Origin: a virus
Lineage: Duplodnaviria > Caudoviricetes
Strand: one strand, 5' to 3'
Virus record (IMG/VR): IMGVR_UViG_3300033485_000008
Coordinates: 1,861-65,860 of that record
DNA: 64,000 nucleotides
Below, piece after piece: positions 14,659-49,782 of the stretch (positions are counted from its first letter, which is position 1; each line of letters starts with the position of its first letter). The translations under genes were made by a program, and so were the position numbers. Under the pieces are notes generated by a model. It was not told where the DNA came from. It searched no databases and saw only the letters and a list, made by a program, of their open reading frames with translations.

Positions 14659-14767
14659 GGCGGGTCGTTCGGCTCTGGTGCCGGGACGTCCAGTGTCTCG
14701 GCAAGGGCCTCGGTTGCCGGCTGGCCTGTAGAGAAAGGTGCATGAAGGAATGGAGGAATAGTCAGCC

Positions 14768-14998
14768 ATGAGAGTTGTCGGCTTCAAATCTCCAGCGTTC
14801 GGTGAGATCGTCTTCGAGTTCCGTGTTAGCGATAACGACCTTGAACGTGCCGGTAAGGAGTCGGCTGTGAAGGCTCAGCAATTGTTCTACGGATGCACGG
14901 GAGCGCGGGTCTGCGACCGTGAGGTAATGGTGCCACTGGTGCTGGAGTTCTTGGTGCAATTGGTCAAGGAGCTGGGGCCTCCGGCACCTAAGAACTGA
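14768..14998 (+). CDS. Hypothetical protein (76 aa)
   Basis: GGAGG SD upstream. Confidence 0.65.
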   Translation: MRVVGFKSPAFGEIVFEFRVSDNDLERAGKESAVKAQQLFYGCTGARVCDREVMVPLVLEFLVQLVKELGPPAPKN

Positions 14999-15011
14999 CA
15001 AGGAGGTAAGC

Positions 15012-15512
15012 ATGGAAGATCGGAGGTCAGAGGATCAGTCAACGCTTGGCTTCCTGCCACGGGTGGACAGGAGGACGTCCTCGCTGGTCATTCCGGAGCG
15101 TCGGCCCCCGGTGGTGCGTCTGCCTGGCAACCAGCGTCCTGGCAGTCGCATCGTCATAAGTCGTTGCGATTCCATCAAGGCCGAGAACGTGTACGGTCGT
15201 TTGCGGTTACAGGGATACGTCGATCCGATCCTGCGAGTCTACAAGGGAGGCGGGGAGTCGGAGAACTTCTTCTGGGCCACGGACCACGGGGTGCTCATCA
15301 CCGTGTCGCTGGGGGTGAGGAGTCAGGTGCTCAAGCATCCTTGTGACGTCGAGTGGATCGAGATGGTGGATAACCGGAAGAACGCCTGCTACCGGACTGA
15401 CAGGCACACGTTCGAGACTCAAGGCGAGGAGTACCGTGCTCCGCGACCGGGGATGGTCACGAGGTACGGGGTCAACGTGCTGCTCTGGGACATGATCACA
15501 GGGCAGATATGA
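15012..15512 (+). CDS. Hypothetical protein (166 aa)
   Basis: AAGGAGG SD upstream. Confidence 0.7.
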   Translation: MEDRRSEDQSTLGFLPRVDRRTSSLVIPERRPPVVRLPGNQRPGSRIVISRCDSIKAENVYGRLRLQGYVDPILRVYKGGGESENFFWATDHGVLITVSLGVRSQVLKHPCDVEWIEMVDNRKNACYRTDRHTFETQGEEYRAPRPGMVTRYGVNVLLWDMITGQI

Positions 15513-33919: not shown

Positions 33920-35752
33920 GTGCTCTCCTGCAATGAATTATTGAAGCTCATGGCCGCTACGCGGAAGGATCCGCGTACATGGCTTGAGCGTGCGTTCTAC
34001 ATCACGACGAAGGGCAATCCGGGGCAGGCTCCGGTGATGACCCTTCGGCTGAACGATCCCCAGGCAGACATCAACGCAGCGATTCTTGAGAGGCGCAAGG
34101 CGGGCCGTCCTCCGCGCCTGATCGTGTTGAAGGCGCGACAGCCGGGAGTTTCGACTTTCTGTTGCGGGATCGTGACGGCGACGGCCTGGTCGATACCGCA
34201 CAGCACGTCGATGATCCTGACCCACCTGGACGAGTCTTCGGAGAAGATGCTCGCGAAGTGTGCGTTTGGCGTTGACAACCTTCCGGTGGAGATCAAGCCG
34301 GTCGAGAAGCGGCGGAAGACCGACCTGATCAAGTTCGATTACATTCAGTGTTCCGATGGGCGTGTGAAGCTCAATTCCGAGATCCAGGTCGCGACGGCCT
34401 CCGGCAAGGAACTCTGGAGGGGCATGACGATCCGGGTGGCTCACTGCTCGGAGTTCGCCCGCTTCCCGTATCCGGCCAGGACTCTCGGAGGGTTGATCCA
34501 GGCGGTGCCGAAGATTCCCGAGAGTCTTGTCGTGATCGAGAGCACGGCACAGGGAGAGGGAGACGTCTTTCACAGCGAGTGGCTGCGTGCGGAGAGCGGG
34601 GAGAGCGACTTCGTGCCGATCTTCATTCCGTGGTGGCGTCTTCCCGATGCGACGATGGTCGTGCCTCCCAATTTCCGGCTGACTCCCGAGGAGAGGGCGC
34701 TCAAGAAGAAGTACAACCTCACCGATCCTCAGCTCTCGTGGTATCGCTACGTGCTCAGGACGGAATGTCAGGGAGACAAGGATCTTTTCGACCAGGAGTT
34801 TCCCGGCAGTCCCCAGATGGCGTTCCTCACGTCGGGCAGGCCGTCGTTTCCGACCAAGCCACTGGCCGAGATGTACGAACGGGCTCGCAAGATCGAGCCG
34901 ATGCGCGGGGAACTCGTCGAGTTCGCCGATGGCATCCGGTTTTCCAAGTCCCGGGACGGATGCCTCGCGATCTACGTTGGTCCGAAGCGGGACCACGAGT
35001 ATTGCATCGGCGGTGACTGCTCAGCGGGTGTCGAGGGCGGCGACTTCTCGTGTTCCGCCGTGTACGACAGGCAGACTTCCGAGATCGTCGCGGTCTGGCA
35101 CGGGAAGATAACGCCAATAGAGTTCGGGCAGAGGATGATGGCCCTGGGCCGTTACTACAACACGGCCTGGCTGGCTCCTGAGGTCAGCGGCGGTCATGGT
35201 TTCGTCGTCATAGCGGAAATAAAGCAGAACTTCTATCCCAGGATCTACGTCTACACGCGCCAGGACAAGATCCGGAACACGATCACGAACTTTCTCGGCT
35301 GGGAGACGACGTACCGCACCCGGGGCCTCCTTCTCGACTCGATGCACTGGGCGATCTCCAATCACGAGATCATGGTCTGGGACATCGGCACGATCAAGGA
35401 GCTGCGCGAGATGCGCTACGTCGATGCCCGTCGTGCGGAAGGTCTTCACTACGACGACCGGGCGTTTGCGACCATGATCGCGTACCGTTGCCACTTGGAG
35501 ATGCCGATGGAGGCGACCGGGATGCCCCCGCGTCTGCGGATACCTCCGGACCCGAAGATTGATGACGACCTGCCTCCGTTGCCGGAGGAACCCCTTGCCC
35601 GTGAGATATGGCAGGAGACCGATCAGATCCTGCGAACGATGGTCACTTCGAGGCAGCGTATGCTTGACGAGTATGGGCAAATACCGGATCCTAAAGATGA
35701 GGCGACGTGGGATCCCGGTGGTAGAGACTGGCTTCCGGAGGTCCCTTACTGA
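33920..35752 (+). CDS. terL: Terminase large subunit
   Basis: Walker A LKARQPGVST, Walker B HCSE, ESTAQG coupling motif, nuclease GGDCSAG and HYDDRAFA. Confidence 0.95.
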   Translation: MLSCNELLKLMAATRKDPRTWLERAFYITTKGNPGQAPVMTLRLNDPQADINAAILERRKAGRPPRLIVLKARQPGVSTFCCGIVTATAWSIPHSTSMILTHLDESSEKMLAKCAFGVDNLPVEIKPVEKRRKTDLIKFDYIQCSDGRVKLNSEIQVATASGKELWRGMTIRVAHCSEFARFPYPARTLGGLIQAVPKIPESLVVIESTAQGEGDVFHSEWLRAESGESDFVPIFIPWWRLPDATMVVPPNFRLTPEERALKKKYNLTDPQLSWYRYVLRTECQGDKDLFDQEFPGSPQMAFLTSGRPSFPTKPLAEMYERARKIEPMRGELVEFADGIRFSKSRDGCLAIYVGPKRDHEYCIGGDCSAGVEGGDFSCSAVYDRQTSEIVAVWHGKITPIEFGQRMMALGRYYNTAWLAPEVSGGHGFVVIAEIKQNFYPRIYVYTRQDKIRNTITNFLGWETTYRTRGLLLDSMHWAISNHEIMVWDIGTIKELREMRYVDARRAEGLHYDDRAFATMIAYRCHLEMPMEATGMPPRLRIPPDPKIDDDLPPLPEEPLAREIWQETDQILRTMVTSRQRMLDEYGQIPDPKDEATWDPGGRDWLPEVPY

Positions 35753-35795
35753 GGGGTGCGGAATGACGCCCTATGGCAGGCACGCCGGCTAGAAA

Positions 35796-35939
35796 ATGCG
35801 TTTCAGGCGCAGGAAAAGCGAAGGTTTCAAGCTCCGGAGGGAACAACGGATCCGCACGGGGCCGGAGCGCACGAGAATGGAGCCCCGGTCAGCCCGTGAG
35901 AACAGGCGCGACCTTCGCCTCTCGAATAGGACGTCGTGA
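35796..35939 (+). CDS. Arg-rich micro-ORF (47 aa; not in ORF track)
   Basis: MRFRRRKSEGFKLRREQRIR...; stop overlaps the next ATG (TGATG). Confidence 0.4.
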   Translation: MRFRRRKSEGFKLRREQRIRTGPERTRMEPRSARENRRDLRLSNRTS

Positions 35940-36109
35940 TGGCGGTTCGCACAGTAGACAACATCAGCGAGACCGCCAGCACGATGAAAACTCGGTACCC
36001 TCAACCCCGTCAGAAGAGAGACCCCTTTGGGATCAAGTTCCGCAGGGGATTTCGGACCCACCAGAGGGTCGAAGGTGTCAGGCCGCTCTTTCGCTCGCCG
36101 AAGCGTTAG
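35939..36109 (+). CDS. Arg-rich micro-ORF (56 aa; not in ORF track)
   Basis: MAVRTVDNISE...FRRGFRTHQR...RSPKR; coupled by TGATG. Confidence 0.45.
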   Translation: MAVRTVDNISETASTMKTRYPQPRQKRDPFGIKFRRGFRTHQRVEGVRPLFRSPKR

Positions 36110-36138
36110 GCGTGTACCGTTCCGAAGAGGAAACGTGC

Positions 36139-36528
36139 GTGCCTCTTGCCGTGAGACCTGAGCAGTGGATCGCAAGTGGCCTGGGGCATCCCTCCTGGCG
36201 TTTCATACGGTCCTTCTACTCAGCCCTTCTCATCAACCTCCTTGCCGACATGCAGGCCGGCTTCGAGGACTGGAGGCCGAAGCCCATCGTGAGGCAGCGT
36301 AACCTCCGGAAGGCGTTGCAGTGGATTGCCTACCCGGATGAGTCGGACGTGCCCATCAACTTCCACACCGTCTGCACCGTGCTCGGCTTCGACGAGCAGT
36401 ACCTTCGGGATCGACTTCGGAACTTTTTCATCGAGCTCAACGGAAAGATGGACAAGCACGACGAGACAGGCTTGCCGGTCGCCGTCTGCGGCCTGCCCGG
36501 TCGTCCTCGTCGTGTCGCCTGTGGCTAG
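36139..36528 (+). CDS. Helical hypothetical protein, possible transcription regulator
   Basis: GAGGA SD before GTG 36139; ALLINLLAD..KALQWI..INFHTVCTVLGFDEQYLRDRL pattern. Confidence 0.65.
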   Translation: MPLAVRPEQWIASGLGHPSWRFIRSFYSALLINLLADMQAGFEDWRPKPIVRQRNLRKALQWIAYPDESDVPINFHTVCTVLGFDEQYLRDRLRNFFIELNGKMDKHDETGLPVAVCGLPGRPRRVACG

Positions 36529-36610: not shown

Positions 36611-37033
36611 ATGAAGATTCAACGATTTCTGCCGTGTCTCGTCATCGTGGCGCTGCTGGCCGTGCTGCCCGGAGTTGCCAGCTCAGCTCCAGCCGGAAAG
36701 ATACTCACCTGTCGAGATTGGGGAAGGTTGACGCCTGTGGCCGGCCAGACGGGAGACGGAGACTCCTTGAACTGGGTCGATACCGGCGAGGGCTTCAACT
36801 CGATCACCTTTTGCTACTTCTACGACTCCGGGCTCGCGACCACGACCATCTTTCTTTCGATAGATGGGGGCGAGCACTGGGATGACGTTGAGAACACTCA
36901 GTTTGGCGGTGGAACGGCGCAGGAGTGTGTCAGCATCACGTATCCCACAGGCATGTATAAGGCTGTCGTCACCAGCTCGGCAGCTCCAGTGGAACACATT
37001 CTTTTCAGGTGCGGTCCAAGGACGGGGAGGTAG
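36611..37033 (+). CDS. Secreted beta-sandwich-type protein
   Basis: Signal peptide MKIQRFLPCLVIVALLAVLPGVASS. Confidence 0.75.
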   Translation: MKIQRFLPCLVIVALLAVLPGVASSAPAGKILTCRDWGRLTPVAGQTGDGDSLNWVDTGEGFNSITFCYFYDSGLATTTIFLSIDGGEHWDDVENTQFGGGTAQECVSITYPTGMYKAVVTSSAAPVEHILFRCGPRTGR

Positions 37034-37036
37034 GAG

Positions 37037-38278
37037 ATGGATTACCGTCGATCTCGTCTGGTCCCATTGCTGATAACGGTGCTCGCGGCGTTTTTGGTCT
37101 TCCAGATTCCAGGTCACCGGGCACAGGGTCAATCATCGGGTCTGGGTGGAGGCAGTTCCGGGTGCGGCGTCTCGGTCTGCGAGGAGCCAACGGAGAGTAC
37201 CTGTTTTTGCGGAACCACCATGTGCCCAACGGGCATGTGGTGCTGTGGTGTTACGAACTCCTGCGAGGTGAGCGAAGCTCTCTGTGTCGCTCATGCCGGC
37301 TGTACGACCACGACTTCCACGACCACAACGACGGTGACGACCAGTACGACCACGAGCACGACAACCACCACCACGACGACAAGCACCAGCACGACGACCA
37401 CGACACTTCCGGCCTGTGGTTCCGTGGACTGCGACATCCCGGTTACAGAGCACTGCGCCTGTGGCGGTACCAGTTGCGCCCTGGGCGAGTATTGCTGTGC
37501 GGCGAACGATGCTTGTTACACCTGGAAGGTTTTCTGTCAGGTCATAGGTTGCGCGACCACGACCACGACCACGGTTGAGGAAACCACGACGACGGTCGAA
37601 GAGACGACGACCACGGTTGAAGAGACGACGACCACAGTAGAGGAGACGACGAGCACGACCACGACGACCACCACCACGACAACGACGACTCTTGCGGCTT
37701 GTGCGGAACCGAGTTGCGGTGCTGTGGCTCCACCTGGTGGGTGTGCGTGCGGAACCGACAACTGCTCGATCAATGAATACTGCTGTGAGGCGAACGACCT
37801 CTGTTACGCGACACAGCAAGAGTGCGAGGTTGACGCTTGCTCGACAACGACCACGACAACTGAGGAAGAGACTACCACCACGAGTACGACCACGACCACT
37901 ACGACCACTACGTCAACGACGACGACAACGCTGCCGACGTGCAGTCCGGTTGACTGTAGTGATCGGGTTATCGAAATCTGCCTCTGCGGTTCCGCGACCT
38001 GTGCGGGCGATGATTACTGCTGCGCTGCCGAGAACGTGTGCGATGCCACTCTCGTCGGTTGCGAGGTCGGTGCCTGCTCGACCACGACGACCACGACCAC
38101 GACCACAAGCACGACGACAACGGTTGAAGCGACCACGACCACGACCGAAGAGGTAACTACGACCACGAGCACGACTACGACCACCACGACGGTTGAGGAG
38201 ACCACCACCACGACCGAAGAGGTGACCACGAGTACGACGACAACGACACTCGAATCGACGACGACCACGACGCTGTAG
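37037..38278 (+). CDS. Secreted protein with four 10-Cys modules separated by poly-Thr linkers
   Basis: Hydrophobic signal; C-x4-C-x7/8-C-x-C-x4-C-x5-CC-x5-C-x6-C-x4/5-C four times; Thr/Glu-rich linkers. Confidence 0.85.
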   Translation: MDYRRSRLVPLLITVLAAFLVFQIPGHRAQGQSSGLGGGSSGCGVSVCEEPTESTCFCGTTMCPTGMWCCGVTNSCEVSEALCVAHAGCTTTTSTTTTTVTTSTTTSTTTTTTTTSTSTTTTTLPACGSVDCDIPVTEHCACGGTSCALGEYCCAANDACYTWKVFCQVIGCATTTTTTVEETTTTVEETTTTVEETTTTVEETTSTTTTTTTTTTTTLAACAEPSCGAVAPPGGCACGTDNCSINEYCCEANDLCYATQQECEVDACSTTTTTTEEETTTTSTTTTTTTTTSTTTTTLPTCSPVDCSDRVIEICLCGSATCAGDDYCCAAENVCDATLVGCEVGACSTTTTTTTTTSTTTTVEATTTTTEEVTTTTSTTTTTTTVEETTTTTEEVTTSTTTTTLESTTTTTL

Positions 38279-38289
38279 GTCTGACGCTT

Positions 38290-38688
38290 ATGGTCCTTGC
38301 TCGTGGTGTAGATGAACGTGCTCACATTCACGAGCAAGCAGCTCGCGTCGAGGCCGGGCGTCTTCGGAAAACTTACGAGTGCCACGAGTTCAACATTCCT
38401 GTTTCGACGGTGGGGGTATCCCTCACGGTGGCTCCGCTTGGCGGTGTTCACACGGTCAACTGTAGCTGCGGGGATGCAGCGTTCGTTCGGTTGACGCTGG
38501 CGCAGCGGGTCGTCATCAGCAATCTGGGCGGGATCTCGTGCCAGGCATCATTCAACGCGGTGACCAATCACAAGGTCACGGTTGGCGACGGTGAGACATT
38601 GGACTGGAACTTTGTAGAGGTTGGTTCGATCTATCTCTGGAACGCCTCTGGCTCGATTGTGGTGCCGGTTAGAATCGTTCTGTGCTGA
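38290..38688 (+). CDS. Hypothetical beta-rich, possibly virion-associated protein
   Basis: Beta-strand pattern ..NHKVTVGDGETLDWNF..SIYLWN. Confidence 0.65.
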   Translation: MVLARGVDERAHIHEQAARVEAGRLRKTYECHEFNIPVSTVGVSLTVAPLGGVHTVNCSCGDAAFVRLTLAQRVVISNLGGISCQASFNAVTNHKVTVGDGETLDWNFVEVGSIYLWNASGSIVVPVRIVLC

Positions 38689-38702
38689 GGCTTGGAGGTG
38701 GC

Positions 38703-39773
38703 ATGGAGAAGGTGACTCCTGATCGAAGTCAGGACCGAGCGTCGGCGGCTGCTGGGCTCTTGAAAGACCACGCCGAGGCCCAGGCCCTCAGTGGACAGAT
38801 CGAACGCCTGAAGAGTACGAAGAGGGACCTGGAGTTTGGCATTGCCGAGCTTCAGAGGAAGCATGACAGTACCTATGTGAGACTCTTCGCAAGCGAGGCG
38901 GAGCAGTGCCAGAAGCTTCAGGAAGCGAGTCGAGCCTACGAACAGGCCGTCAAGGACCGGGATTGCGTTCATAACGAGGCAGCTAGTCTGCAAGATGCAA
39001 TTCAGCACCTGAGGGGGGAGAGGCAGTATCTCAAGGAGCAGATTTCCGAATCCAGGGTCATGCTGGAACAACTCCAGTCGGCAATCGAGGAAGCTCGCGA
39101 GCAGAGCCAGTGGATACAGACCGTTCATGAGAAGCACCGGGAGTTGAGGGAAGAGCTGGCAACAGCCATGAGCGAGCTTGATGGGGTTAAGGCCCAGAAG
39201 CTCAGTCTGGAAAAGCTCATCGAGCAAGAGGGTGAGGCAGCGCGTCAACGGTTTGAGCTGGCAAAACGTCAGCTTGCGGAGGTGGCGGTCGTGGCGGAGG
39301 AGAACCGGCTGATGAAGCAGCAGATCACTGCTGACGAGAAATTGACCAATGACGCCTGGGCCAGACTGGCGACTCGCGAGCAGGAGCTTGTCGAGCGCGA
39401 GAAGGCCGTGGAGGCCGGGCGCTTCGTAGTCGATCAGGAAGTTAAGCTCCAGCGCGGCAGAGAGGCGCAGCTCGACCAGCACGAGGCCAACCTGAAGAAA
39501 GCTGCGGTTGAGGTCGCGTCTCGCGTCGAGGAGCTGATCTCGAAGGACCAGGCTTTGGAGGCCAAAGTTGTCGAGTTCGGGGCGTTCGTCAACGTCGTGA
39601 CCAACAGGGACCGTCAGCTCCTAGAGAAGATTGAGGAGTTGGAAAAGCGTGAGGCCAAGCTCGCCGCTGCCGAGGCGGAAAATGATGACCGGTTGATGAA
39701 GTTGCGGGAATCGGCGGAGGAACTGTACCGACGTGAACAGGCCATCAAGCAGCGCGAGAAGAATCTGGCTTAG
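38703..39773 (+). CDS. Long coiled-coil protein
   Basis: GGAGGTG SD; heptad-rich E/Q/K/R/L/A sequence throughout. Confidence 0.8.
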   Translation: MEKVTPDRSQDRASAAAGLLKDHAEAQALSGQIERLKSTKRDLEFGIAELQRKHDSTYVRLFASEAEQCQKLQEASRAYEQAVKDRDCVHNEAASLQDAIQHLRGERQYLKEQISESRVMLEQLQSAIEEAREQSQWIQTVHEKHRELREELATAMSELDGVKAQKLSLEKLIEQEGEAARQRFELAKRQLAEVAVVAEENRLMKQQITADEKLTNDAWARLATREQELVEREKAVEAGRFVVDQEVKLQRGREAQLDQHEANLKKAAVEVASRVEELISKDQALEAKVVEFGAFVNVVTNRDRQLLEKIEELEKREAKLAAAEAENDDRLMKLRESAEELYRREQAIKQREKNLA

Positions 39774-42282
39774 CCTCCTCGCGGCAGTCATCCTACAGTT
39801 TGGCTTTCACAATCCTGCCCTGGGTCAGCCTGCCTTCAGTAAGCCTGGCTACGGGACCATCTACTATGGCGGGGCCAATATGCCGGCCCGTAGGATCCTC
39901 AAGTTCGATGGCACGGGAGTCACATGCGCTGACGATCCTGTGCTTTTGATGAGCGTTTGCACCATTACCGGGACTGGCGGTGGAACCATAGATGGTTCTG
40001 GTGCGGCTGGGGAGGTTACCGTTTGGGCTGACGCCGATACTCTCACATCGGAAAGTGCCTTTAGCTACAAGAGCCACGAGGGGATGAAGTTCCTGAATTT
40101 CGTGGATGAGGCTGGACGGCAACTTCAGATTGGTGTCACTGGCAATTCCGGAGTCTGCAACGGCGATTGCGACGATCCTGGTCTTCTTTGCGCAATTCAC
40201 GCGAATTGCACCGGATGTAGTAACGGCTGCACGCAGATCTGGGATAAGACAAAACCTAGTATTTTTTCAGGTAATTCATGGAGCTTAGGATTAGCTACTG
40301 GTAACGCAAGCGGTACAATGTACTTTCAGTCCTATGACAATATGACCTTTTACAATGCCGATGCGACCGTTAAACGTCTTGAGCTTCACTCTACGGGTGG
40401 CGTACCGGACTACGCTACGATTTATGGAGACACCTACGTAGATGATCTTACAGGTACTGGAACACGTTGCGTGAATGTAAGCGACACTGGACTTCTTGGG
40501 GCTGCTGCCTGTGGAACCGTAGATGGTTCTGGTACGGCTGGAGAAGTCACCTTTTGGTCTGACACTGACACTGTCACATCTGATAGTGGTTTTTGTTACG
40601 ATCCGACAGAGAATCAGTTCTTTGTTAATCGTTCATGTGTTGACCCTGGAGTTGGTGGAGATGCCTCTGGCATAGTTGTCGACCGCAATGTTTGGGTTAT
40701 TGGTGACGGAGCCGATAGCAACTATTACTTTATGGCTTACGGAGCTGATCCTCAGTGGCTGGGATACCGTGCTCAGGGGAGGGAAGCTACTCCGACGATT
40801 GTCACTGATGGTAATCGACTGATTCATATACGAGGAACTGGTTACGACGGCGCACCAACAAATGGCTACTGGGCTATCGGTGGTTACATGGACATCGTTG
40901 CCGATGGCAACTGGGTCGCAGATACCAGTTCGCCGGCAAAGTGGATGCTTTACCTTACCCCTTCGGGTAGTCAGACGCCGATCAAAGTCGGTGAGTGGAA
41001 ACCGGGAGAATTTCGTATCTTATCTGCTGGTACAACGCCGTCATTGTATCTTGAGGGCTCTGGTGGCGATGGGGCGATTTCTTACGACAGCAGTGGCACA
41101 CCCGAGTTCCGGCCCAATAGAGCCTGGAGGATGGTCGAGGACTTGCCTCTTCACATTGGTGGCGCTGCTGGCTACTGGTCCTTGAAGTATGACGAGGCCG
41201 TAGACGATCAACTTCTTTTGAGTACCACCAAGACAGGAACGGCTTCGATTACTGATCCCATGTATGAAATCTTGGTAGGGGCCACGCCAACAGCGGACCA
41301 GCAGGTCTTCGGCATCGCCAAGGGCACGCAGGATAGCAACACGCCGTTGTTCACAGTGGACGAAGATGGAGACGTAGAGTTCGCAGGTTCACTTACGGCA
41401 ACTGATCTGGAATGTGCTGGTTGTGTTGATGGAGATGATGTTCATAGTTCGATTGCTGGTGCTGGACTTCAGTGGGTTGCTGGAAGTCCAGATACCCTTG
41501 CAACGGAATCGACGGAAAGTGAGTTCCTGCATCCAGACGTTATTGGAGATGCGCTCGTCTGTGGTGCTGGAACTGCTGGGCAGGTGCAATTGCGTGTTGG
41601 CAAACCTATGGAGTATTGTGATAATTCGGCTACGCCAGCGATCAAGTATGCTGCTTATGGCAATTCCAGCGGAGATGCCACTACCGTCTCTTGCGCGAGT
41701 TGTGTAGCATTGGGCACTGAGACGGCTGGAGACTACGTCGATTCAGCGACAGCAGACCAGGGACTTGTTGCTGCTGGTACGGAGAAATTGAATCTTGGCC
41801 TCAAGGTTTGTTCCTCCGGTCAGGTTCTGAAGCGAACCGCAGATAGTAAATGGGACTGTGCGGCAGATGCCACTGGCGGCGGTGGGACTGGTATTCTTTC
41901 GGCATCGACGTGCATGAAACTCTCGGGTGTGAACAACGTCTACGTTGCCAGCGGGACATGCGCTGATTCGAGTGAGTCACTGGTTCTGACTCAGGTTGAG
42001 AACGCGATTACGCTTTCAGATCTCCGATGTCGTGGATCTGTGGATCCAGGTGCTGGTAAGAGTGTTTCAATCACGGGTCGGTATGGTGCCTGCGGATCTC
42101 TGTCCACATCAGGGACTTTCACATGCTCTTTGACTGGAGGTTCGGGAGTACCACCGAGCTGTACTGCTGGTGCGGCTACGATGGCAGTTGGTGACGAGGA
42201 GTGCTGGAGCTTGCTCCTGCAACCTGGTGGAGCGTTCACATCGAAGATGGCGGTTAATTGTACTCTGGCAGCTACTGGATAG
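39733..42282 (+). CDS. Tail-fibre-like protein with N-terminal signal peptide
   Basis: IWLSLLAAVILQFGFHNPALG signal; duplicated GT(I/V)DGSG.AGEVT.W.D.DT module; Gly/Thr-rich; Cys-rich C-terminal beta domain. Confidence 0.7.
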   Translation: MNRPSSSARRIWLSLLAAVILQFGFHNPALGQPAFSKPGYGTIYYGGANMPARRILKFDGTGVTCADDPVLLMSVCTITGTGGGTIDGSGAAGEVTVWADADTLTSESAFSYKSHEGMKFLNFVDEAGRQLQIGVTGNSGVCNGDCDDPGLLCAIHANCTGCSNGCTQIWDKTKPSIFSGNSWSLGLATGNASGTMYFQSYDNMTFYNADATVKRLELHSTGGVPDYATIYGDTYVDDLTGTGTRCVNVSDTGLLGAAACGTVDGSGTAGEVTFWSDTDTVTSDSGFCYDPTENQFFVNRSCVDPGVGGDASGIVVDRNVWVIGDGADSNYYFMAYGADPQWLGYRAQGREATPTIVTDGNRLIHIRGTGYDGAPTNGYWAIGGYMDIVADGNWVADTSSPAKWMLYLTPSGSQTPIKVGEWKPGEFRILSAGTTPSLYLEGSGGDGAISYDSSGTPEFRPNRAWRMVEDLPLHIGGAAGYWSLKYDEAVDDQLLLSTTKTGTASITDPMYEILVGATPTADQQVFGIAKGTQDSNTPLFTVDEDGDVEFAGSLTATDLECAGCVDGDDVHSSIAGAGLQWVAGSPDTLATESTESEFLHPDVIGDALVCGAGTAGQVQLRVGKPMEYCDNSATPAIKYAAYGNSSGDATTVSCASCVALGTETAGDYVDSATADQGLVAAGTEKLNLGLKVCSSGQVLKRTADSKWDCAADATGGGGTGILSASTCMKLSGVNNVYVASGTCADSSESLVLTQVENAITLSDLRCRGSVDPGAGKSVSITGRYGACGSLSTSGTFTCSLTGGSGVPPSCTAGAATMAVGDEECWSLLLQPGGAFTSKMAVNCTLAATG

Positions 42283-42300
42283 CGACGAGAGGAGTCTGGA

Positions 42301-43194
42301 ATGAAGAAGGTTCAAGGACTGAGGTTGGCGTGGCAGTTTTACGTGTGGGTCGTCTTGATGCTTGGCCTGCCTATTCTGGCGTTTGGGTTCCAGGCCACGA
42401 GCCCGATCACACTTGAGGATGGTTCGATTACCATCACCGATCCGCTGCCGGTGGATAACGGTGGTACCGAGCGACAGACCTTGACTCTTTACAATGTTCT
42501 ACTCGGTGCCGGCACAGGACCGATTGACTACGCTGCTCCAGGGGCCAATCCACAAGCGTTGATCTCCAATGGAGCCGCTTTCAATCCTACCTTCCAGGCG
42601 TTGGACCTGGCAGGTACGTCAGCCGTGACTGGGCTCCTGCCTCTGGCAAATGGTGGCACTAACAAGAACGTCACGCCGCTCAACGGTGCTCTGCTATACA
42701 CAGATGCCGACTCCGCAGAGGTGATGGCTAGTGTTGGTACCTCCGGTCAGTGTCTCAAGTCCCAAGGCGCTGCGAACCCTCCGACCTTTGGAACCTGCAC
42801 GACATCTGGCTCACCACTGGTGGCCTTCAGCACCGTTGGTAACGTAAGTAACTCGACTGTGTACGTGAACTTCGCCGGAGGCGTCGATACGACTGAGGTT
42901 CGTGTTCAGATGCCAATGCCTGCGGCCACGTTTGCCAACCTTCGGTGTGTGAGTTCCGTGGCACCTGGCGGTACTCAGACCATCATCATCACCGGCAGGT
43001 ACGGGGCTTGTGGCGGTCAGGGACCGGACGCAGATCACACTTGTACCATTACTGGAGCTGCGACCACTTGTGATCCAGACCCCGATACCGATCCAGTCGT
43101 GGTAACGGCTGGTCAGTGTCTGGATTACTCGATCGCTTCCTCGGCGACTGCGGCTAACGCAGTTGTCAACTGCACGGTGGAGCGCACTGCATGA
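42301..43194 (+). CDS. Short tail-fibre-like protein with signal peptide
   Basis: Hydrophobic N-terminus; LPVDNGGT/LPLANGGT fibre repeats; C-terminal domain paralogous to 39733..42282. Confidence 0.7.
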   Translation: MKKVQGLRLAWQFYVWVVLMLGLPILAFGFQATSPITLEDGSITITDPLPVDNGGTERQTLTLYNVLLGAGTGPIDYAAPGANPQALISNGAAFNPTFQALDLAGTSAVTGLLPLANGGTNKNVTPLNGALLYTDADSAEVMASVGTSGQCLKSQGAANPPTFGTCTTSGSPLVAFSTVGNVSNSTVYVNFAGGVDTTEVRVQMPMPAATFANLRCVSSVAPGGTQTIIITGRYGACGGQGPDADHTCTITGAATTCDPDPDTDPVVVTAGQCLDYSIASSATAANAVVNCTVERTA

Positions 43195-44978
43195 TTCTGT
43201 GGCTGTTGCTGGTTACTTTCCTTTGTTTACCGACTCAGGGTTGGGCACTCTCGGTTAGTGCGCCTATCAGCCTTGAGGACGGTACCATTGGGATGGTTGC
43301 TGGCGCGAACGATAACACCATAGAACTGTACGACACGGACACGTCTGCGTGGATACCTAGATACTTACTCAGCACGGACTTCACGGTCACGGGAGAGTAC
43401 GTTAGTCTCAGCGAAACCGTCAACCGCTGTGGTACATTTTGCTTCGATGAGTGTGCGGAGGTTCCGGCCACGGTGGACATTTGCGATAAAGCTCTTGACT
43501 TGGGCGGTGGCACAGTTTTCATACCAGATGGTGGGACAACGAGTCTAACCTGCACGGCTTTGACTCCCACGCAACTTCAGGTGCTCGACAATGGTACCCT
43601 CGAATGGTGTGACGGCGCGGGATCGACTACGGAACGCAGCGTTGCTCCGTTTGGTCCAACCATAGACGACACTGAGTTGACTGCTGAGAACTTTGGCGCA
43701 TTTACGTGCTCGGGTTCTGAGGATGGATGCGAGATAAACTCTTCTATTGCGGCTGCAGGACTTGCTTTAGATACGAGCACGACTCCGGACAGTATCAAGA
43801 CAGCTTCACAAGAGGCTGCGTTCTTCGCTGATGGGGGAACGACCAGCTTGACTTGCACGTCAGCACAAGGGGCGGGCAGTGCTCAGGTGATGGACAGCGG
43901 GAATATGCAGGTGTGCTCAGGCGCATCCACGCCACTGTTGGGGATGATCGCACCCAACATACCGATGGCTGGTTGGGGAGGTACGGCAGGCGCGGCTTTC
44001 ACCTATGCCGGTCAAGGTACGGGAGCGTGTAGTGGTGACATTTGTCGTGGTGGTGTTTGTTCCGGTACTACACCGAATGGAACGTGCACGCTTACCCCCA
44101 ACAGCGAGTATTGGAAGAATCTTGTAAATCTCATCAATGATCCCTCCGATCAGGCTTATTACGCGAGGGTAGACAGCTTCACCGTTACTGGCGGAACGAT
44201 CACGATCAGTAATGCTTCTATTGGCACGAACGGCATGGTGGTCGTTTTTCTAGTGCGAGACAATGTGAGCATAGATGAAACTACGTCAGCAGTAACCTTC
44301 AACCTTGAAGGAAGAGGGGCTGCGGGGGGATGTGCAACTCCAGCCGCTGTAGATGACAACGCTCAGGGTGGTTTTGGTGGAAGCACGGCGTTTAATCTTG
44401 GTGGCTGGCCTTCTCTATCTGCTGGCAACGGAAATGTTGGTAACGCATTCAACTCTGCTAGTCCAATCAACACGCCCTATATTCTTTGGACAAGCGGTTT
44501 CATGCCCGTATTTCCGGGGACGGGCGGTGGCTGTGCAAAGATGACCTCGGGAACGTCTGGTGGAATCGGAACCAATTTAAGTTACGGTCGTGGACTCATA
44601 GGGTCAACGGGTGGAGGAGGTCCTTGGTGCCCTGTAGCAGCATCTGGCACTGTTGGTACCGCTGGACGTGGTGGTGGTGGGATAGCCTTTGTTGTCGGTG
44701 GGTCGTATTCATGCGTTGCTTCTGGAACTCCAAGCAATGAGTTTGATCTTGATGGCACTGCTGGAGGTACGGGTGCTGCTGGTGGAGGCGGTGGAATACT
44801 GACTGTGATCGCTCGTGCCTTTGGTACGACGACTTGTGACATAGAAGCAGAAGGTGGTGCTGCTGGTGCTAGTCTTACGGACTGCTCATCATACGTCGGT
44901 GGGGTGGGTGGGCACGGCGGATGGTGGTTCGTGAACACAACAACTGGTGCTTTTTCGGATAACACCGACGATGACTAA
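43191..44978 (+). CDS. Gly-rich tail-fibre-like protein with signal peptide
   Basis: MILWLLLVTFLCLPTQGWA signal; duplicated DGGTTSLTCT module; poly-Gly C-terminal region (GGGGGIL..) typical of phage fibres. Confidence 0.7.
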   Translation: MILWLLLVTFLCLPTQGWALSVSAPISLEDGTIGMVAGANDNTIELYDTDTSAWIPRYLLSTDFTVTGEYVSLSETVNRCGTFCFDECAEVPATVDICDKALDLGGGTVFIPDGGTTSLTCTALTPTQLQVLDNGTLEWCDGAGSTTERSVAPFGPTIDDTELTAENFGAFTCSGSEDGCEINSSIAAAGLALDTSTTPDSIKTASQEAAFFADGGTTSLTCTSAQGAGSAQVMDSGNMQVCSGASTPLLGMIAPNIPMAGWGGTAGAAFTYAGQGTGACSGDICRGGVCSGTTPNGTCTLTPNSEYWKNLVNLINDPSDQAYYARVDSFTVTGGTITISNASIGTNGMVVVFLVRDNVSIDETTSAVTFNLEGRGAAGGCATPAAVDDNAQGGFGGSTAFNLGGWPSLSAGNGNVGNAFNSASPINTPYILWTSGFMPVFPGTGGGCAKMTSGTSGGIGTNLSYGRGLIGSTGGGGPWCPVAASGTVGTAGRGGGGIAFVVGGSYSCVASGTPSNEFDLDGTAGGTGAAGGGGGILTVIARAFGTTTCDIEAEGGAAGASLTDCSSYVGGVGGHGGWWFVNTTTGAFSDNTDDD

Positions 44979-45011
44979 TGATGGGACATTTGTGGAAGTG
45001 GCTGATAGCTA

Positions 45012-48000
45012 ATGGCGTGGATATTGATTGCCTTGCTTTTGGTTTGTAGTCCTGCTCTTGCTGGCGATCCCGTTTGGATGACCGCCTTTAGCTCGGCTGA
45101 CGAGGACGATGCTACCAATGGGTACGACTCCTTTGAGTTCTTACAGCGTCTTGATGGAGATGCCGAGGATGCTGACATTAGACTCCAGATGACGACGATC
45201 TGTGGAGCTGTAAATGGCTGCGATGCTACGTCTTTGTGGGCTCTTGAGGTTGATGTGGGCCAGAACGAGCAGGCGTACTACGAGCCGGTGAACACCACGG
45301 CTGGAATGTGCGCTACTACTGCCACGGACGAGTGTGATGAAAATTCCGACTGTCCTGGCGCGGATCATTATGGTTGTCGTATTGCGGAGCAATCTCCCTT
45401 TCCATTGGACACTTATGAGATGGCCGTTGACGGGAGGTTGTACTTGGCAAGCGCAGGGAGCAACCGGCCTATCCTAGAGATCATTGAGAGTGATGGAGGC
45501 ACGGGAGCGAATCTCGTGTGGAACACAGACCGGACGTTTACCGTCCGTTATGATACGACGACGCTTGGAACTCCTACGTTCATTGCACACGATACGGCTT
45601 GCACGACGCCGTACACTCACTTGCCATGTCTGGACAACTCCTATTGTCCATCTGGCTATCCGTGTACCGCCAATAAATACTGGGCTCCGGTGAAGCTGTA
45701 TCAGTATTCTCAAAGTCCAACGGTCAACGTGGATTTGTACGTGGCAGGCCATCGGATAGCACATTATACACCCATACCTGCTTCCGCACCGAGCAAGCCA
45801 GCGACGTTTAGAATTGGCGGAACGACGGACGATCCTAACGGAGCTATCCATTTCTATGCTGCCAGCATGGTAGCATACGCATGTTCTGAGAGTAGTTGCC
45901 CGATCAATTCCGCCTGGGGATATGTTGCGACTGCTTACGCAGATACCGATGGTGATGACAAGGAATGGGGAGAAACTAGCGGCGGAGGGTGCCTCTCGTC
46001 AACCCATTGGGATTGTTTGAACGATTACAGCGACACGGACGAGGCCCCTGACTATACCTACGGAAGCGGTCGGGTGACTTCTACACAAAAGGGAAAGCTT
46101 GAGGAGATAGCCGGCTTTACCTCGGTTACTGTCTCAGGAGACCGAACGGTTGATGCGATTGACATTGTGGGATTTGGGGATGCTGGGGATGGTAACGCCG
46201 CCACCACGCATCAGTTTGAACTCACGGGCTATGTAAATAGCATAGACCCGGCTTACACCATGTCGTCTGGCATGATTACGGTTGGCAACGCGAGTCCACA
46301 CGACGACGAGAACAATAATGACCGCCAAGTGGTGCGTGTTCTCGGCTCACGTCCATCTATGCTATTCGATAACTGGTCTACTACGGACATTGACTCCCTG
46401 ACCATCTCGCTTAATTCTTCTTCAACCAACACCAATCTAACCAGGCTTGGTGTCGTCGAGGTCTACGTCCATGTCGTCGAGCCGGGTCAACTGCCGGATA
46501 CGATCCCAGAAGGGAACAAAGGCACGGATGACAACGAGCGGACCGTAGCTATCGTTGGCGATTCGACAAGTGTGCCCGATCAGACTTTGCAGGGCCAGTG
46601 CGACAACGATCCATCAGTATTCTGCACGCAACGAAGTCATTGCTCCTGGGACCCCGAGAAGGACACCCCAACAGGCGGCTGCGGCTCGAATGAGCAGTGC
46701 ATTACGTGCAGCGGCTCGCAAGGCGCGACTGTTGGATACCGATGTAACACAGCCGATCCTACGGATGCCGATGCGTTGCTCTGCCACTCGATCTGCTCTG
46801 GCGGAACTGCTCCACCGGATACCAACTGCACGGTTGATGGCGATTGCTCCGGTGGCGGAACGTGTGAGATCAACGATTGCGTAGCCGGTCACTGCACGAG
46901 AAACCCAACAGTGACCTGTAGCTCGCGGACGACCTGCGAGAATCTTGGCACCTGTAGCATGACTGCAACCTGTGACGATAGCTGCCCAGGGGGAGACTGC
47001 CCACCTACTTTGAGCTGGTCTGACTACATTCCTGGCAACGTCCGTGTAGACAACCTGATTAACTGTGCGCATGGCGGCTGGGGCACCTGGCACCAGAATG
47101 AACACTTCGAGCGAGTATTGGATGCCGAGGCGAAGACGTGTCAGAACACCGGGAGTGGATATTTTGGAGACGCCTGCGATGATTCTTCTGACTGTGGTGG
47201 AACGCTATGCTTGCCATTTTGTGATGTCATTCAAGGTGAGAGGAAGAAACCCGATGTCATTGCGGTTGACCTCGCTGTAAATGACTCGGCGATTTACTCG
47301 AATGCTCCCAACTGTGATGGTATCGGGGCTGCTCATGGAGGTTCAATAGCTGGTACTGGTGCCTGTAGTCCACCAACCCAGGTCAACTGTGCTCGTCACC
47401 AGGATTGCATAGATCAGGTTGGACCTGACTCCGTTTGCGCGGGAAGACTGCCCAACAGTTCAAGCACATGCTACTCAAACATCATCCAATATGGCGTGTC
47501 CGGCACTTGTAGTGTCGTCCATCGTATCTGCCGTCAAGGCTCAGATTGCTACTTCTATGGCATGGACACTTGCACGGTAGATGAGCCAACGAAAGATTAC
47601 CCGAGGGGCAACTGCAAGTGCGTAGATAATGATGACTGTCCCGATCCTCTTTCTGCGAGTGATCCTGGCTGGGTGTGCGCTAAGGTGTGCGTTGGCGGAA
47701 GCGCCGATGACAAGGGTTGCCTCGTGGCAAGCGACTGTCCTGGTGGGACATGCACCAATACTGAGATTTGCCATCGTGGTTGCACGACCGATGCTCAATG
47801 TTATGGCGCGGGTGCTTGCAACAACGCTGGTACGCAAGACTGGTGCCAGGGTACTTGCACATACCCCGGTAGCGAGCAGGACTGCGACGACCCCACGGAC
47901 TGCGACTCGCTCAACCTCATGGTGACGAACCGGGTATTTAGCTGGAATGGAACGTGCTCGTCTGGTCATTGCCTGTGCTCAGGTCCATCTTACTGTTATG

Positions 48001-48767
48001 GTGATGGCGCTTGTGCCACTCAGTACGAAACGGGTTGGCTAAACGCTCTAAAGGGACATGCCGTTGCGATTGAATACTACGACCGCTGGCAGTCGGTGAT
48101 CGACGGACTCAGCGAGAGCGATGGCAGGCCCAAGCTCTTATTCAGCACGGTGCCGGATACTTACGCTGCGGAATGTGATCCGTCACGAGGCGACAAGCAG
48201 TATGTCGCCCGAGTCAACGAGCATCTGCGGGGTGACGCCTATTGCTCAGGCGGGACCGATGTTGGAGAGAACTGCACTGAGGACAGTCAGTGTAGTGGCG
48301 GTACGTGCAATCGGCGGTATCGCTATGTTGCCGACTGTGCCGATGATTTCGACCACGATAAGGCAACGCACCTTCAACCAGATGGTCTTCATTTCTCCGC
48401 TCCTGGCTCAGAATCACTGGGCATGTGTATGGTTGACCGTTTGCTGAGCTGGAATACGTGTTCCCTAGACGCGGGTACAGAAGACACTATTCCTCAATAT
48501 TATTGCCGCAATGCTAATGGGACATGGCCTTCACCACAGGTACCATGTACGGTCGAAACGGAACAGACGGACTGTACTGGAATCCAGACGTGCGAGCTTC
48601 AAGGCTGTACCTGCGATTGTGTTGGGAGTGTGTGTGCCGGAACGGCCTATCCAGGGCAAGCGTGTAGTATAGATAATGACTGCTGCTCACCGTTTGGTGG
48701 CGTGTGCAGCGGAGGGATCTGCACGTCCGCATGTTATGGAAGTGCCGAGTGCAACGTGGTGAGTTGA
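45012..48767 (+). CDS. Secreted Cys-rich SGNH/GDSL hydrolase (tailspike/esterase-like)
   Basis: Signal MAWILIALLLVCSPALA; IVGDS (46551-46565), HGGWG (about 47070), LAVND (about 47280), PDGLH (about 48380); many C-x-GG..C..DC-x-GG-x-C repeats. Confidence 0.8.
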   Translation: MAWILIALLLVCSPALAGDPVWMTAFSSADEDDATNGYDSFEFLQRLDGDAEDADIRLQMTTICGAVNGCDATSLWALEVDVGQNEQAYYEPVNTTAGMCATTATDECDENSDCPGADHYGCRIAEQSPFPLDTYEMAVDGRLYLASAGSNRPILEIIESDGGTGANLVWNTDRTFTVRYDTTTLGTPTFIAHDTACTTPYTHLPCLDNSYCPSGYPCTANKYWAPVKLYQYSQSPTVNVDLYVAGHRIAHYTPIPASAPSKPATFRIGGTTDDPNGAIHFYAASMVAYACSESSCPINSAWGYVATAYADTDGDDKEWGETSGGGCLSSTHWDCLNDYSDTDEAPDYTYGSGRVTSTQKGKLEEIAGFTSVTVSGDRTVDAIDIVGFGDAGDGNAATTHQFELTGYVNSIDPAYTMSSGMITVGNASPHDDENNNDRQVVRVLGSRPSMLFDNWSTTDIDSLTISLNSSSTNTNLTRLGVVEVYVHVVEPGQLPDTIPEGNKGTDDNERTVAIVGDSTSVPDQTLQGQCDNDPSVFCTQRSHCSWDPEKDTPTGGCGSNEQCITCSGSQGATVGYRCNTADPTDADALLCHSICSGGTAPPDTNCTVDGDCSGGGTCEINDCVAGHCTRNPTVTCSSRTTCENLGTCSMTATCDDSCPGGDCPPTLSWSDYIPGNVRVDNLINCAHGGWGTWHQNEHFERVLDAEAKTCQNTGSGYFGDACDDSSDCGGTLCLPFCDVIQGERKKPDVIAVDLAVNDSAIYSNAPNCDGIGAAHGGSIAGTGACSPPTQVNCARHQDCIDQVGPDSVCAGRLPNSSSTCYSNIIQYGVSGTCSVVHRICRQGSDCYFYGMDTCTVDEPTKDYPRGNCKCVDNDDCPDPLSASDPGWVCAKVCVGGSADDKGCLVASDCPGGTCTNTEICHRGCTTDAQCYGAGACNNAGTQDWCQGTCTYPGSEQDCDDPTDCDSLNLMVTNRVFSWNGTCSSGHCLCSGPSYCYGDGACATQYETGWLNALKGHAVAIEYYDRWQSVIDGLSESDGRPKLLFSTVPDTYAAECDPSRGDKQYVARVNEHLRGDAYCSGGTDVGENCTEDSQCSGGTCNRRYRYVADCADDFDHDKATHLQPDGLHFSAPGSESLGMCMVDRLLSWNTCSLDAGTEDTIPQYYCRNANGTWPSPQVPCTVETEQTDCTGIQTCELQGCTCDCVGSVCAGTAYPGQACSIDNDCCSPFGGVCSGGICTSACYGSAECNVVS

Positions 48768-48776
48768 GAAAGAGGT

Positions 48777-49235
48777 TTGGGTGGAGTGGGCAAGCTTGTT
48801 GAGATCCGTTACATCGTGATCCATCACAGTGCGACCCGGGATGGTGAGACGATGTCTTGGCCCGCCATCCGGCGCTTCCATACGACGCCTCCTCCGGACG
48901 GTCGGGGTTGGGCGGACATCGGTTACCACATCGGGATCGAGCAGATTGCTCAGACGTGGGAGGTGTTCATTGGGCGACCCTGGACGGTGGCTGGTGCTCA
49001 CGCTCCGGGCCGGAACTCTGACAGTCTTGGCATCTGTCTGGTGGGTGATTTCGACCAGACTGCGGTGCCTGCTCAACAGTGGGCTGCTGCTGTTAGATTG
49101 GTCCGATGGCTTCGTGGACGGTTTACAGTGCCTGTGGATCGGGTAGTCGGGCACAGGGAGGTGCAGAAGGGACGGACTTGCCCGGGGAGGTACTTTGATC
49201 TGGCGGCCTTCAGAGATGCGGTAGCCAAAGGGTAG
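48777..49235 (+). CDS. Endolysin, N-acetylmuramoyl-L-alanine amidase (Amidase_2)
   Basis: IVIHHSAT, GWADIGYH, GAHAPGRN.DSLGICLVGDF, VGHREV..CPG. Likely start is GTG 48786. Confidence 0.95.
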   Translation: MGGVGKLVEIRYIVIHHSATRDGETMSWPAIRRFHTTPPPDGRGWADIGYHIGIEQIAQTWEVFIGRPWTVAGAHAPGRNSDSLGICLVGDFDQTAVPAQQWAAAVRLVRWLRGRFTVPVDRVVGHREVQKGRTCPGRYFDLAAFRDAVAKG

Positions 49236-49264: not shown

Positions 49265-49465
49265 ATGGCTCGGAAATGGGTTCAAGGGGCCATAAAGCAT
49301 CCAGGCGCGTTGCACGAGGATCTGGGGATTCCTCAGGGGAAGAAGATTCCACGGGACACGCTGGAGGCGGCGGCGAAGCGCAAGGGAACGGTGGGCCGTC
49401 GGGCGCGACTGGCGATTGCGATGCGGGGATTCCGCCACGGGGGGAACCGGAGTTCGAGGAAGTGA
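49265..49465 (+). CDS. Small basic protein (66 aa)
   Basis: GAGGAGG SD; KWVQGAIKHPGALH..GKKIP..GRRARLA pattern seen in tailed-phage structural regions. Confidence 0.75.
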   Translation: MARKWVQGAIKHPGALHEDLGIPQGKKIPRDTLEAAAKRKGTVGRRARLAIAMRGFRHGGNRSSRK

Positions 49466-49782
49466 TGAGTTGTGCTGGCTGTGAGGCGAAGGACGACGAG
49501 ATCCGGTTCTTACGGTCCCAGATCGTGGAGATGCAGGATCGGCTTCTGGCCTTGACTAACCCGGCGTCATTTCAGATCTATAAGGGGTTGCCGGTGTCGG
49601 GGGGTCCTACCGTTCCAGGTGTTGGCGCAGAGCAGACGTTTCCTGATCCAACGACGGGCGAGTTGATGATGTTCGTCGGCGGTCAGGTCGTGAAGGCGGC
49701 TGAATACAGCAAGGCGATGGGAAAACTTGAGGAACAGATGTCCGGGCGAAGCCCGGGAGATGGCGAGCAAGGGTTGCTCTAG
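49465..49782 (+). CDS. Hypothetical protein (105 aa)
   Basis: TGATG overlap; short coiled coil. Confidence 0.7.
   Translation: MSCAGCEAKDDEIRFLRSQIVEMQDRLLALTNPASFQIYKGLPVSGGPTVPGVGAEQTFPDPTTGELMMFVGGQVVKAAEYSKAMGKLEEQMSGRSPGDGEQGLL

Follow-up and report, generated by a model that had tools for sequence, protein, structure and literature searches.

A late-operon cassette of predicted exported, cysteine-rich fibre-like proteins in an uncultured short-tailed phage

Introduction

In the textbook account, tailed phages are assembled wholly in the cytoplasm, and their host-range proteins are assumed to be poor in cysteine and free of signal peptides. T7 gp17, P22 gp9 and the fibres of R-type pyocins fit this account: they fold in the cytoplasm, carry no signals, contain few cysteine (Cys) residues and are encoded in the tail module. 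Here we describe a block of eight open reading frames (ORFs) at positions 36611-48767 of a 64,000-nucleotide stretch of viral DNA (IMG/VR record IMGVR_UViG_3300033485_000008; hereafter the window, whose numbering is used unless stated otherwise), six of which are predicted to encode exported, disulfide-bonded proteins. The fibre-like members resemble the canonical podovirus and pyocin fibres in their NGGT-type repeats, C-terminal globular head, multiple paralogs and hypervariability, but differ from them in being signal-bearing, Cys-rich and encoded outside the tail module.

Signal-bearing fibres have been described on the bacterial side. The mosaic adhesive trimer (MAT) fibres of Bdellovibrio bacteriovorus are phage-fibre-like trimeric adhesins with signal peptides (Caulton et al. 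2024, PMC10769870). Their likeness to the proteins predicted here lies in the signal peptide, a conserved N-terminal module, a trimeric phage-fibre-like shaft, variable adhesive tips and extracytoplasmic display (PMC10769870). The differences are that MAT genes are chromosomal in a predator cell and many end in S74 chaperone-protease domains, whereas the genes described here lie in a phage late operon and encode 8-Cys jelly-roll tips. Comparison with the MAT hallmarks (a beta-rich domain of about 130 residues and a beta-helix or beta-prism shaft) gave a weak Foldseek match to Bd1399 (E 6e-3), and a Pfam scan of the cassette proteins detected no S74 domain.

Two further groups of systems are related in part. 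Shiga toxin subunits, PBSX XepA and the signal-peptide genes of Porphyromonas phages (PMC10367356) are phage-encoded products exported before or at lysis and encoded near lysis genes, but none is fibre-like with the modularity of receptor-binding proteins. XepA is listed among non-classically secreted proteins and has no classical signal (PMC1266369), and in the Porphyromonas phages the signal peptides are on unassigned genes, with no tail parts named (PMC10367356). The outer virion parts of phage Milano contain extensive disulfides, as proposed here, but those bonds lie within a cytoplasm-assembled tail, and the paper mentions neither a signal peptide nor the periplasm (PMC10811340). In full-text literature searches we came across no account of tailed phages whose tail fibres carry signal peptides.

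Results

Signal peptides in the terminase-to-endolysin cassette

The cassette lies between genes for a large terminase and an Amidase_2 endolysin, spans about 12 kb and makes up 18% of the genome. Eight further phages, all metagenomic, have the same terminase-cassette-portal layout and carry at least 37 signal-bearing proteins; they comprise L003-L007, which are long contigs reached via terminase homologs, and L089, L094 and L095. The eight ORFs, named below by their first position, are as follows.

36611-37033, plus strand: small predicted exported protein of 140 residues, with a signal peptide and 4 mature Cys; conserved first cassette gene, with signal-bearing homologs in L003 and L004
37037-38278, plus strand: mucin-like predicted exported protein of 413 residues; signal peptide, then four modules of 10 Cys each (40 Cys) connected by poly-Thr linkers
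38290-38688, plus strand: conserved signal-less protein of 132 residues; N-terminal helix and small jelly roll, lineage-specific
38682-39773, plus strand: coiled-coil protein of 363 residues without a signal, 2 Cys; positional counterparts in relatives have 336-490 residues
39733-42282, plus strand: predicted exported fibre-like protein of 849 residues, 28 Cys; head homologous to ORF 42301, mature N-terminus QPAFSKPGY common to positional orthologs
42301-43194, plus strand: predicted exported short fibre of 297 residues, 8 Cys; signal helix followed by a hairpin-repeat shaft of NGGT type and a jelly-roll head that holds the 8 Cys and ends in CTVERTA
43191-44978, plus strand: predicted exported fibre-like protein of 595 residues, 20 mature Cys; mature N-terminal motif of the ORF 42301 type, Gly-rich C-terminal region
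45012-48767, plus strand: predicted exported Cys-rich protein of 1251 residues, 94 mature Cys; esterase blocks of SGNH type (GDS / G / xND / DxxH) separated by Cys-rich insertions

Signals were called by a heuristic that looks for an n-region with a hydrophobic core behind it and a small-x-small site. By this measure ORFs 36611, 37037, 39733, 42301, 43191 and 45012 all have the layout expected of Sec/signal peptidase I substrates (basic n-region, h-region of 7-15 residues, small residues at -3 and -1): each begins with a short, mostly basic n-region, followed by a hydrophobic core of 10-20 residues and a small-x-small site. Cleavage is predicted at VAS/S, AQG/Q, ALG/Q, AFG/F, GWA/L and ALA/G, respectively. 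ORFs 38290 and 38682 are without a signal. Applied to the whole genome, the same scan found signals in 6 of the 8 cassette ORFs versus about 2 of about 65 ORFs elsewhere, which bears out the first-pass annotation of this DNA, made from the letters and a list of ORFs, in placing signal peptides on six of the eight. The sole convincing signal outside the cassette is that of a 118-residue early-region protein (14302-14658, plus strand; MMMQLRKLGGVCGVVLVLLLAGSEVRA/A), which may be a superinfection-exclusion or envelope factor.

The hydrophobic N-terminal segments are kept in homologs at 30-40% identity. Signal-bearing starts are preceded by GGAG-type ribosome-binding sites, and the genes are packed as in an operon, with a 3-nucleotide gap, a 41-nucleotide overlap, an 18-nucleotide gap, an ATGA overlap (at 43191) and a 33-nucleotide gap; no strong terminator was found within the block. 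The findings that the first-pass annotation had named as speaking against export include true starts downstream of the hydrophobic segments and orthologs that are ordinary cytoplasmic fibres. We found neither: the segments are conserved, the upstream starts agree with gene packing and with the ribosome-binding sites, and the full-length orthologs are not of the cytoplasmic kind. The survey of related phages that it had called for showed signals and AxA sites conserved across the eight further phages and in a 33-member family (see below).

Two other export routes were considered. Several n-regions contain RR, as in Tat signals, but many signals lack it, and Cys-rich proteins oxidised after transport would fit Sec better. 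Lipoprotein signals were rejected, as no lipobox precedes a Cys in the signals of ORFs 43191 or 45012. Gln is common at position +1 of the predicted cleavage sites (37037 and 39733 here; also L003-L006, L089, L090, a contig introduced below, L094 and L095; for example AQG/Q, ALG/Q, ALA/Q and AFA/Q), which suggests that the mature N-termini may be capped by pyroglutamate.

Cysteine content and parity

The six signal-bearing proteins contain 3.4% (36611), 9.7% (37037), 3.3% (39733), 2.7% (42301), 3.5% (43191) and 7.6% (45012) Cys, so that the earlier description of most of them as Cys-rich stands. Proteins of the virion module contain hardly any: Cys is absent from those of 2590, 341, 374 and 361 residues, the 817-residue protein has 3 (0.4%), and the portal has 0.9%. 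The genome is thus split by compartment, with signal-bearing Cys-rich proteins on one side and nearly Cys-free core virion proteins on the other.

The number of Cys residues is informative as well. In the family of ORF 42301 the mature Cys count is even (4-12) in 33 of 33 members, even where the signal itself has one or two Cys. Across the signal-bearing cassette proteins of eight phages it is even in 35 of 37, the two exceptions being adjacent genes with 7 and 9 Cys; L094 and L095 add further even cases and two odd ones. Cassette proteins without a signal have no such bias (8 odd, 3 even), and the parity holds solely when the residues before the predicted cleavage site are left out.

L006 provides a natural control. 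Its positional ortholog of the first fibre (14446-15087) begins directly at a PGFSxPG motif (PGFSLPG) and has no signal and no Cys. In ORF 39733 and in L004 a motif of the PGFSxPG type comes directly after the cleavage site, and the L006 ortholog lacks the hydrophobic extension upstream of it. The protein, elsewhere exported, may thus exist in L006 as a cytoplasmic anchor.

Taken together, the conserved signals, the AxA sites, the parity and the L006 control leave export, cleavage and full disulfide pairing as the only economical reading. We consider it very probable, judging from these sequence features, that the six proteins are exported and disulfide-bonded. Export for the sake of disulfide formation, first proposed from the bare sequence, is therefore strongly supported by the conserved signals and AxA sites, by the even mature counts (33/33 and 35/37) and by the L006 ortholog that has lost both the signal and all Cys.

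The ORF 42301 family

An exhaustive phmmer search with ORF 42301 gave 1767 proteins at E<=1e-3. The best 150 of these include about 35 full-length homologs of 230-340 residues, and about half are long repeat proteins, many with signals. The full-length homologs were aligned (alignment A2), and the 33 with intact N-termini were used for the cleavage and parity counts. The signal is kept in 33 of 33; at position -1, 31 of them have Ala and the other two Gly, and Ala also prevails at -3. The alignment has a conserved signal and cleavage region, a mature N-terminus of the form (L/I)(S/T)G.xNEIxVQNGxIGIVDPL, NGGT repeats and a C-terminal domain with conserved Cys that ends in C(T/S)VERTA. By these features ORF 42301 is the founding member of a newly defined family.

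An AlphaFold (AF2) model built from A2 (mean predicted local distance difference test score, pLDDT, 85.8) consists of an N-terminal helix at residues 3-26, corresponding to the signal, an extended array of short beta-hairpins, and a jelly roll at residues 169-297 with pLDDT above 90. The fold matches are trimeric jelly-roll heads, among them the secreted chlamydial protein Pgp3 (best in Foldseek, E 1e-4), PBSX XepA (best in VIA, Z 9.9) and ligands of the TNF/C1q type; phage receptor-binding heads are also among the matches (the phage 7-7-1 fibre, the receptor-binding protein of lactococcal phage 1358, and PRD1 P5). Jelly-roll heads are a common architecture, and the model supports a fibre with a distal head, nothing more specific.

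The fibre hallmarks singled out by the first-pass annotation were all recovered: ORF 42301 carries the repeats LPVDNGGT and LPLANGGT, ORFs 39733 and 43191 have Gly tracts, and a C-terminal domain, modelled as a jelly roll, is common to ORFs 39733 and 42301 (BLASTP E 3e-9). ORF 42301 thus combines fibre repeats with a distal globular domain of binding type, as judged from the AF2 model and the fold matches. The family profile matches the R2 pyocin fibre weakly (E 0.12), and one long repeat-sharing homolog has tail-fibre PHROG domains. No curated fibre family was recovered: the cassette proteins have no Pfam, PHROG or NCBIfam match even at E 1-10, coiled-coil noise excepted. A tblastn search of 50,697 deposited phage records gave no match.

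Other cassette proteins

ORF 37037 has no Pfam, PHROG, NCBIfam or PDB-sequence match, and phmmer searches of PDB sequences with ORFs 37037, 39733, 43191 and 45012 returned nothing useful. A word-indexed search with the 849-residue ORF 39733 found no homolog besides itself; its head is homologous to the jelly roll modelled for ORF 42301. The nearest ESM Atlas clusters of ORF 43191 are viral, one with Mtd_N, which we take as a lead only.

ORF 45012 is a predicted SGNH esterase. Blocks I (GDS), II (G), III (GxND) and V (DxxH) occur in order, and all are kept in a 1233-residue, 88-Cys ortholog in L089 at 24% identity. Its ESM neighbours, again only a lead, are all GDSL/SGNH clusters at 0.85. No Pfam model matches it, PF00657 and PF13472 included, presumably because the Cys-rich insertions split the domain.

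The 132-residue protein encoded by ORF 38290 has orthologs in L004, L005, L006 and L089 and was modelled by AF2 at pLDDT 77; its fold gave only generic viral jelly-roll and cupin matches and was set aside as a clue to mechanism. The product of ORF 38682 is a coiled coil throughout, with solely weak matches of the SMC/Rad50 coiled-coil type.

The cassette in other phages

Of the eight further phages, seven are related by terminase and one has an unrelated packaging module. Terminase identity is 45-60% for L003-L007 and 44-60% for all relatives listed among the 247 homologs. The order of their cassettes is conserved: a small signal-bearing protein, a signal-less protein of about 130 residues with a HIHE..AGRLR helix, a coiled coil of 336-490 residues, and a variable run of large signal-bearing, Cys-containing proteins. 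Within a phage, paralogs have common mature N-termini and hypervariable distal parts.

The cassette also occurs in a different type of phage. L090, a 59-kb contig with Terminase_3, an HK97-type portal and an S78 protease, has a signal-bearing 299-residue family member and a 1036-residue, 40-Cys partner between terminase and portal. The L090 cassette adjoins a gene for a response-regulator receiver. The six loci of the 297-residue family whose context was examined are all phage terminase-to-portal intervals.

Fate of the exported proteins

We propose that block 36611-48767 is a host-surface toolkit for the oxidising side of the membrane, an explanation that as a whole we hold tentatively and at slightly less than even strength. 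Very probably, Sec carries six late-operon proteins across the membrane in unfolded form, signal peptidase I removes their signals at conserved AxA-type sites, and they fold in the periplasm with every Cys disulfide-bonded. The predicted exported set comprises three fibres (NGGT-type repeats, jelly-roll or Gly-rich tips), the SGNH esterase, the mucin-like 10-Cys repeat protein and the small conserved protein. The likeliest single fate of these proteins, though itself only tentatively assigned, would be that of virion appendages and receptor-binding proteins. They would wait in the periplasm and dock on DNA-filled particles built in the cytoplasm after the holin breaches the inner membrane, either through the signal-less 132-residue jelly roll and 363-residue coiled coil or through their conserved mature N-termini, and a particle-borne esterase could serve as a receptor-modifying or receptor-destroying enzyme. 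Particles of two compartments, with a cytoplasmic head and tail core and the whole receptor-binding arsenal Sec-exported, disulfide-locked in the periplasm and added at holin opening, are a possibility that we advance with more reserve.

The case for a virion role comes first from comparison with phage N4. The late gene order is collinear with that of N4: terminase, appendage block, lysis genes, portal, capsid, tail and the place of the giant Cys-free virion protein gp50. The cassette occupies the slot of N4 gp67 (structural), gp66 (appendage), gp65 (receptor-binding sheath) and gp64 (assembly), a block that likewise follows the terminase (gp68), is large and includes fibre or appendage proteins. 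In the tail module no other fibre or spike candidate was found. The synteny with the N4 appendage slot and the lack of another fibre gene favour attachment to virions at lysis. G+C content falls to 52-56% over window positions 40001-48000, where the fibre genes lie, versus about 60% elsewhere, which fits horizontally exchanged host-range modules; with this dip, the common N-termini and the hypervariable distal parts, the paralogs behave like host-range modules. Attachment to virions after export therefore seems to us a plausible but tentative prediction from gene content and order.

Several points weigh against it. The N4 gp64-gp67 proteins differ in having no hydrophobic N-termini and only 0.5-1.7% Cys, and BLASTP against N4 gp50-gp68 found no similarity, so that the N4 likeness is one of gene order alone. 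Export is no prerequisite for disulfides in virions, as Agrobacterium phage Milano shows (PMC10811340). Signals were called by a heuristic rather than a trained predictor, and virion membership is predicted from synteny and conserved mature N-termini. The compartments are mismatched, and assembly at lysis would need to proceed within seconds or after dilution. The cassette abuts the lysin and is separate from the tail module, a position common among accessory cassettes; in L090 it behaves as a self-contained, apparently mobile module; and the mucin-like repeat protein and the esterase could work as free exported factors.

The strongest alternative is one that we regard as possible, if less so than a virion role: the proteins would be exported and never enter the virion, acting as free or cell-bound lectin-like fibres and enzymes in the periplasm, on the envelope or after release at lysis. 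Periplasmic Shiga toxin, released by phage lysis, and SM1 PblA/PblB are models for such factors. Their roles could include destroying or masking receptors against loss of progeny on debris, superinfection exclusion, loosening of glycans for release, or priming of neighbouring cells. Signals and disulfides place the proteins outside the assembly compartment, the genes adjoin the endolysin and are separate from the tail genes, and the cassette recurs in the unrelated L090 type. The best folds for the head are exported XepA of the PBSX lytic cassette and secreted chlamydial Pgp3, and SGNH esterases are classic receptor-destroying enzymes. Under this alternative, however, the phage would have no recognisable receptor-binding protein, and the slot is the appendage slot of an N4-like order. 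Host-range determinants, rather than exclusion factors, typically take up some 12 kb of a lytic genome with fibres that are hypervariable and present as several paralogs, and the paralogs share mature N-termini as interchangeable receptor-binding proteins do.

The other explanations are unlikely even when taken together. Captured cellular adhesin genes resembling Bdellovibrio MAT, carried as cargo without a role in the phage cycle, are improbable. Bacteria do have signal-bearing, tail-fibre-like trimeric adhesins (PMC10769870), the long repeat proteins make up about half of the best 150 matches to ORF 42301, and both the weak Bd1399 match and the G+C dip over 40-48 kb would fit; but phages with terminases at 44-60% identity have kept the core of the cassette in the same order, every examined locus of the 297-residue family is a phage one, and in 5 + 301 genomes (306 Planctomycetota and others) the family profile had no full-length match, two weak repeat matches excepted.

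Uncleaved signal anchors, which would hold the proteins on the periplasmic face of the inner membrane, where they might form a scaffold for docking or at the lysis site, are slightly less probable again. The hydrophobic core of ORF 42301 is long (about 20 residues) and was modelled as one helix, and cleavage is a prediction from sequence; yet the AxA that closes the core almost without exception in 33 homologs would have no purpose in an anchor, the Cys parity requires exclusion of the residues before the cleavage site, and most cores, at 10-15 residues, are short for a membrane span. Mis-called starts or chance hydrophobic N-termini are very improbable, for although long spurious ORF extensions arise in high-GC genomes and the neighbouring ORF 35773-36528 looks partly spurious, distant homologs have kept the signals in their protein sequences, the upstream starts suit both the gene packing and the ribosome-binding sites, and 6 of 8 against about 2 of about 65 is far beyond chance.

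Under either of the two leading readings, this is a conserved, apparently widespread set of phage fibre-like proteins that seems built for export and disulfide bonding: a new morphogenetic route, if appendages are indeed added at lysis, or otherwise exported effectors of a new class that have the shape of receptor-binding proteins. The proteins would be a new variant of phage host-recognition proteins, and would define a new assembly route if they join virions; such two-compartment finishing would make the timing of lysis part of virion morphogenesis. Both readings affect the search for receptor-binding proteins in viromes, where proteins such as these, without a Pfam or PHROG match and absent from deposited phage records, would be missed, as well as host-range prediction and the expression of fibres for use, which would call for the periplasm rather than the cytoplasm. 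The 297-residue family, with its signal, NGGT shaft and 8-Cys jelly-roll head, offers a compact experimental model.

Genome context and lifestyle

The window covers bases 1861-65860 of one 65,860-bp contig with a 21-bp end repeat, indicating a complete, circularly assembled virus record. The phage is short-tailed, uncultured and metagenomic, and the plus strand carries nearly all of its genes. Features outside the cassette that bear on its setting are listed below; profile searches upheld the earlier identification of terminase and endolysin.

33920-35752, plus strand: large terminase, 610 residues; phrog_2 at E 2e-21, 247 homologs; upstream boundary of the cassette
35936-36109, plus strand: small basic conserved ORF, 57 residues; tblastn 47% identity to a 58-residue L005 gene, in another frame than 35773-36528
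48777-49235, plus strand: single-domain Amidase_2 endolysin, 152 residues; PF01510 at E 2e-21, phrog_822; downstream boundary of the cassette
50164-52437, plus strand: P22-type portal protein, 757 residues; phrog_156, PF16510, 55% identity to the L006 portal
53528-54829: major capsid protein
58605-61058: nozzle-like tail protein, 817 residues
genome 1480-9252 (window up to 7392), plus strand: junction-spanning 2590-residue protein with a ddrB-ParB domain

The 2590-residue protein, possibly a virion protein that is ejected, has no Cys and occupies the place of N4's giant virion RNA polymerase, which likewise lacks Cys. A virion RNA polymerase was not detected in it, and homology to N4 (Schitoviridae) is ruled out at sequence level by the null BLASTP result, neither related core genes nor the giant polymerase having been found. 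The nearest deposited phages, at 20-25% identity in capsid and portal, are actinophages and spring metagenome phages.

A virulent lifestyle is probable. We noticed neither an integrase nor a repressor in the genome, and a GTDB-wide terminase scan of one genome per species across 185,579 species found no related prophage and none closer than 36%, with the hosts of the matches spread over many phyla. The lack of integrase, repressor and related prophage argues against lysogenic conversion. The small single-domain Amidase_2 lysin presumably points to a diderm host. Close to the lysin no holin or spanin was recognised. Scans of IMG/VR and JGI metagenomes with the terminase and the 849-residue protein returned two short contigs only.

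Two gene calls near the cassette probably need revision. The low-complexity ORF of 251 residues at 35773-36528 (plus strand), just 3' of the terminase, overlaps 35936-36109 and is probably at least partly spurious. For the gene 3' of the endolysin (49276-49782), the real start is probably the internal Met at MSCAGCEAK, and it matches a 95-residue gene in L006 and a 109-residue gene in L095.

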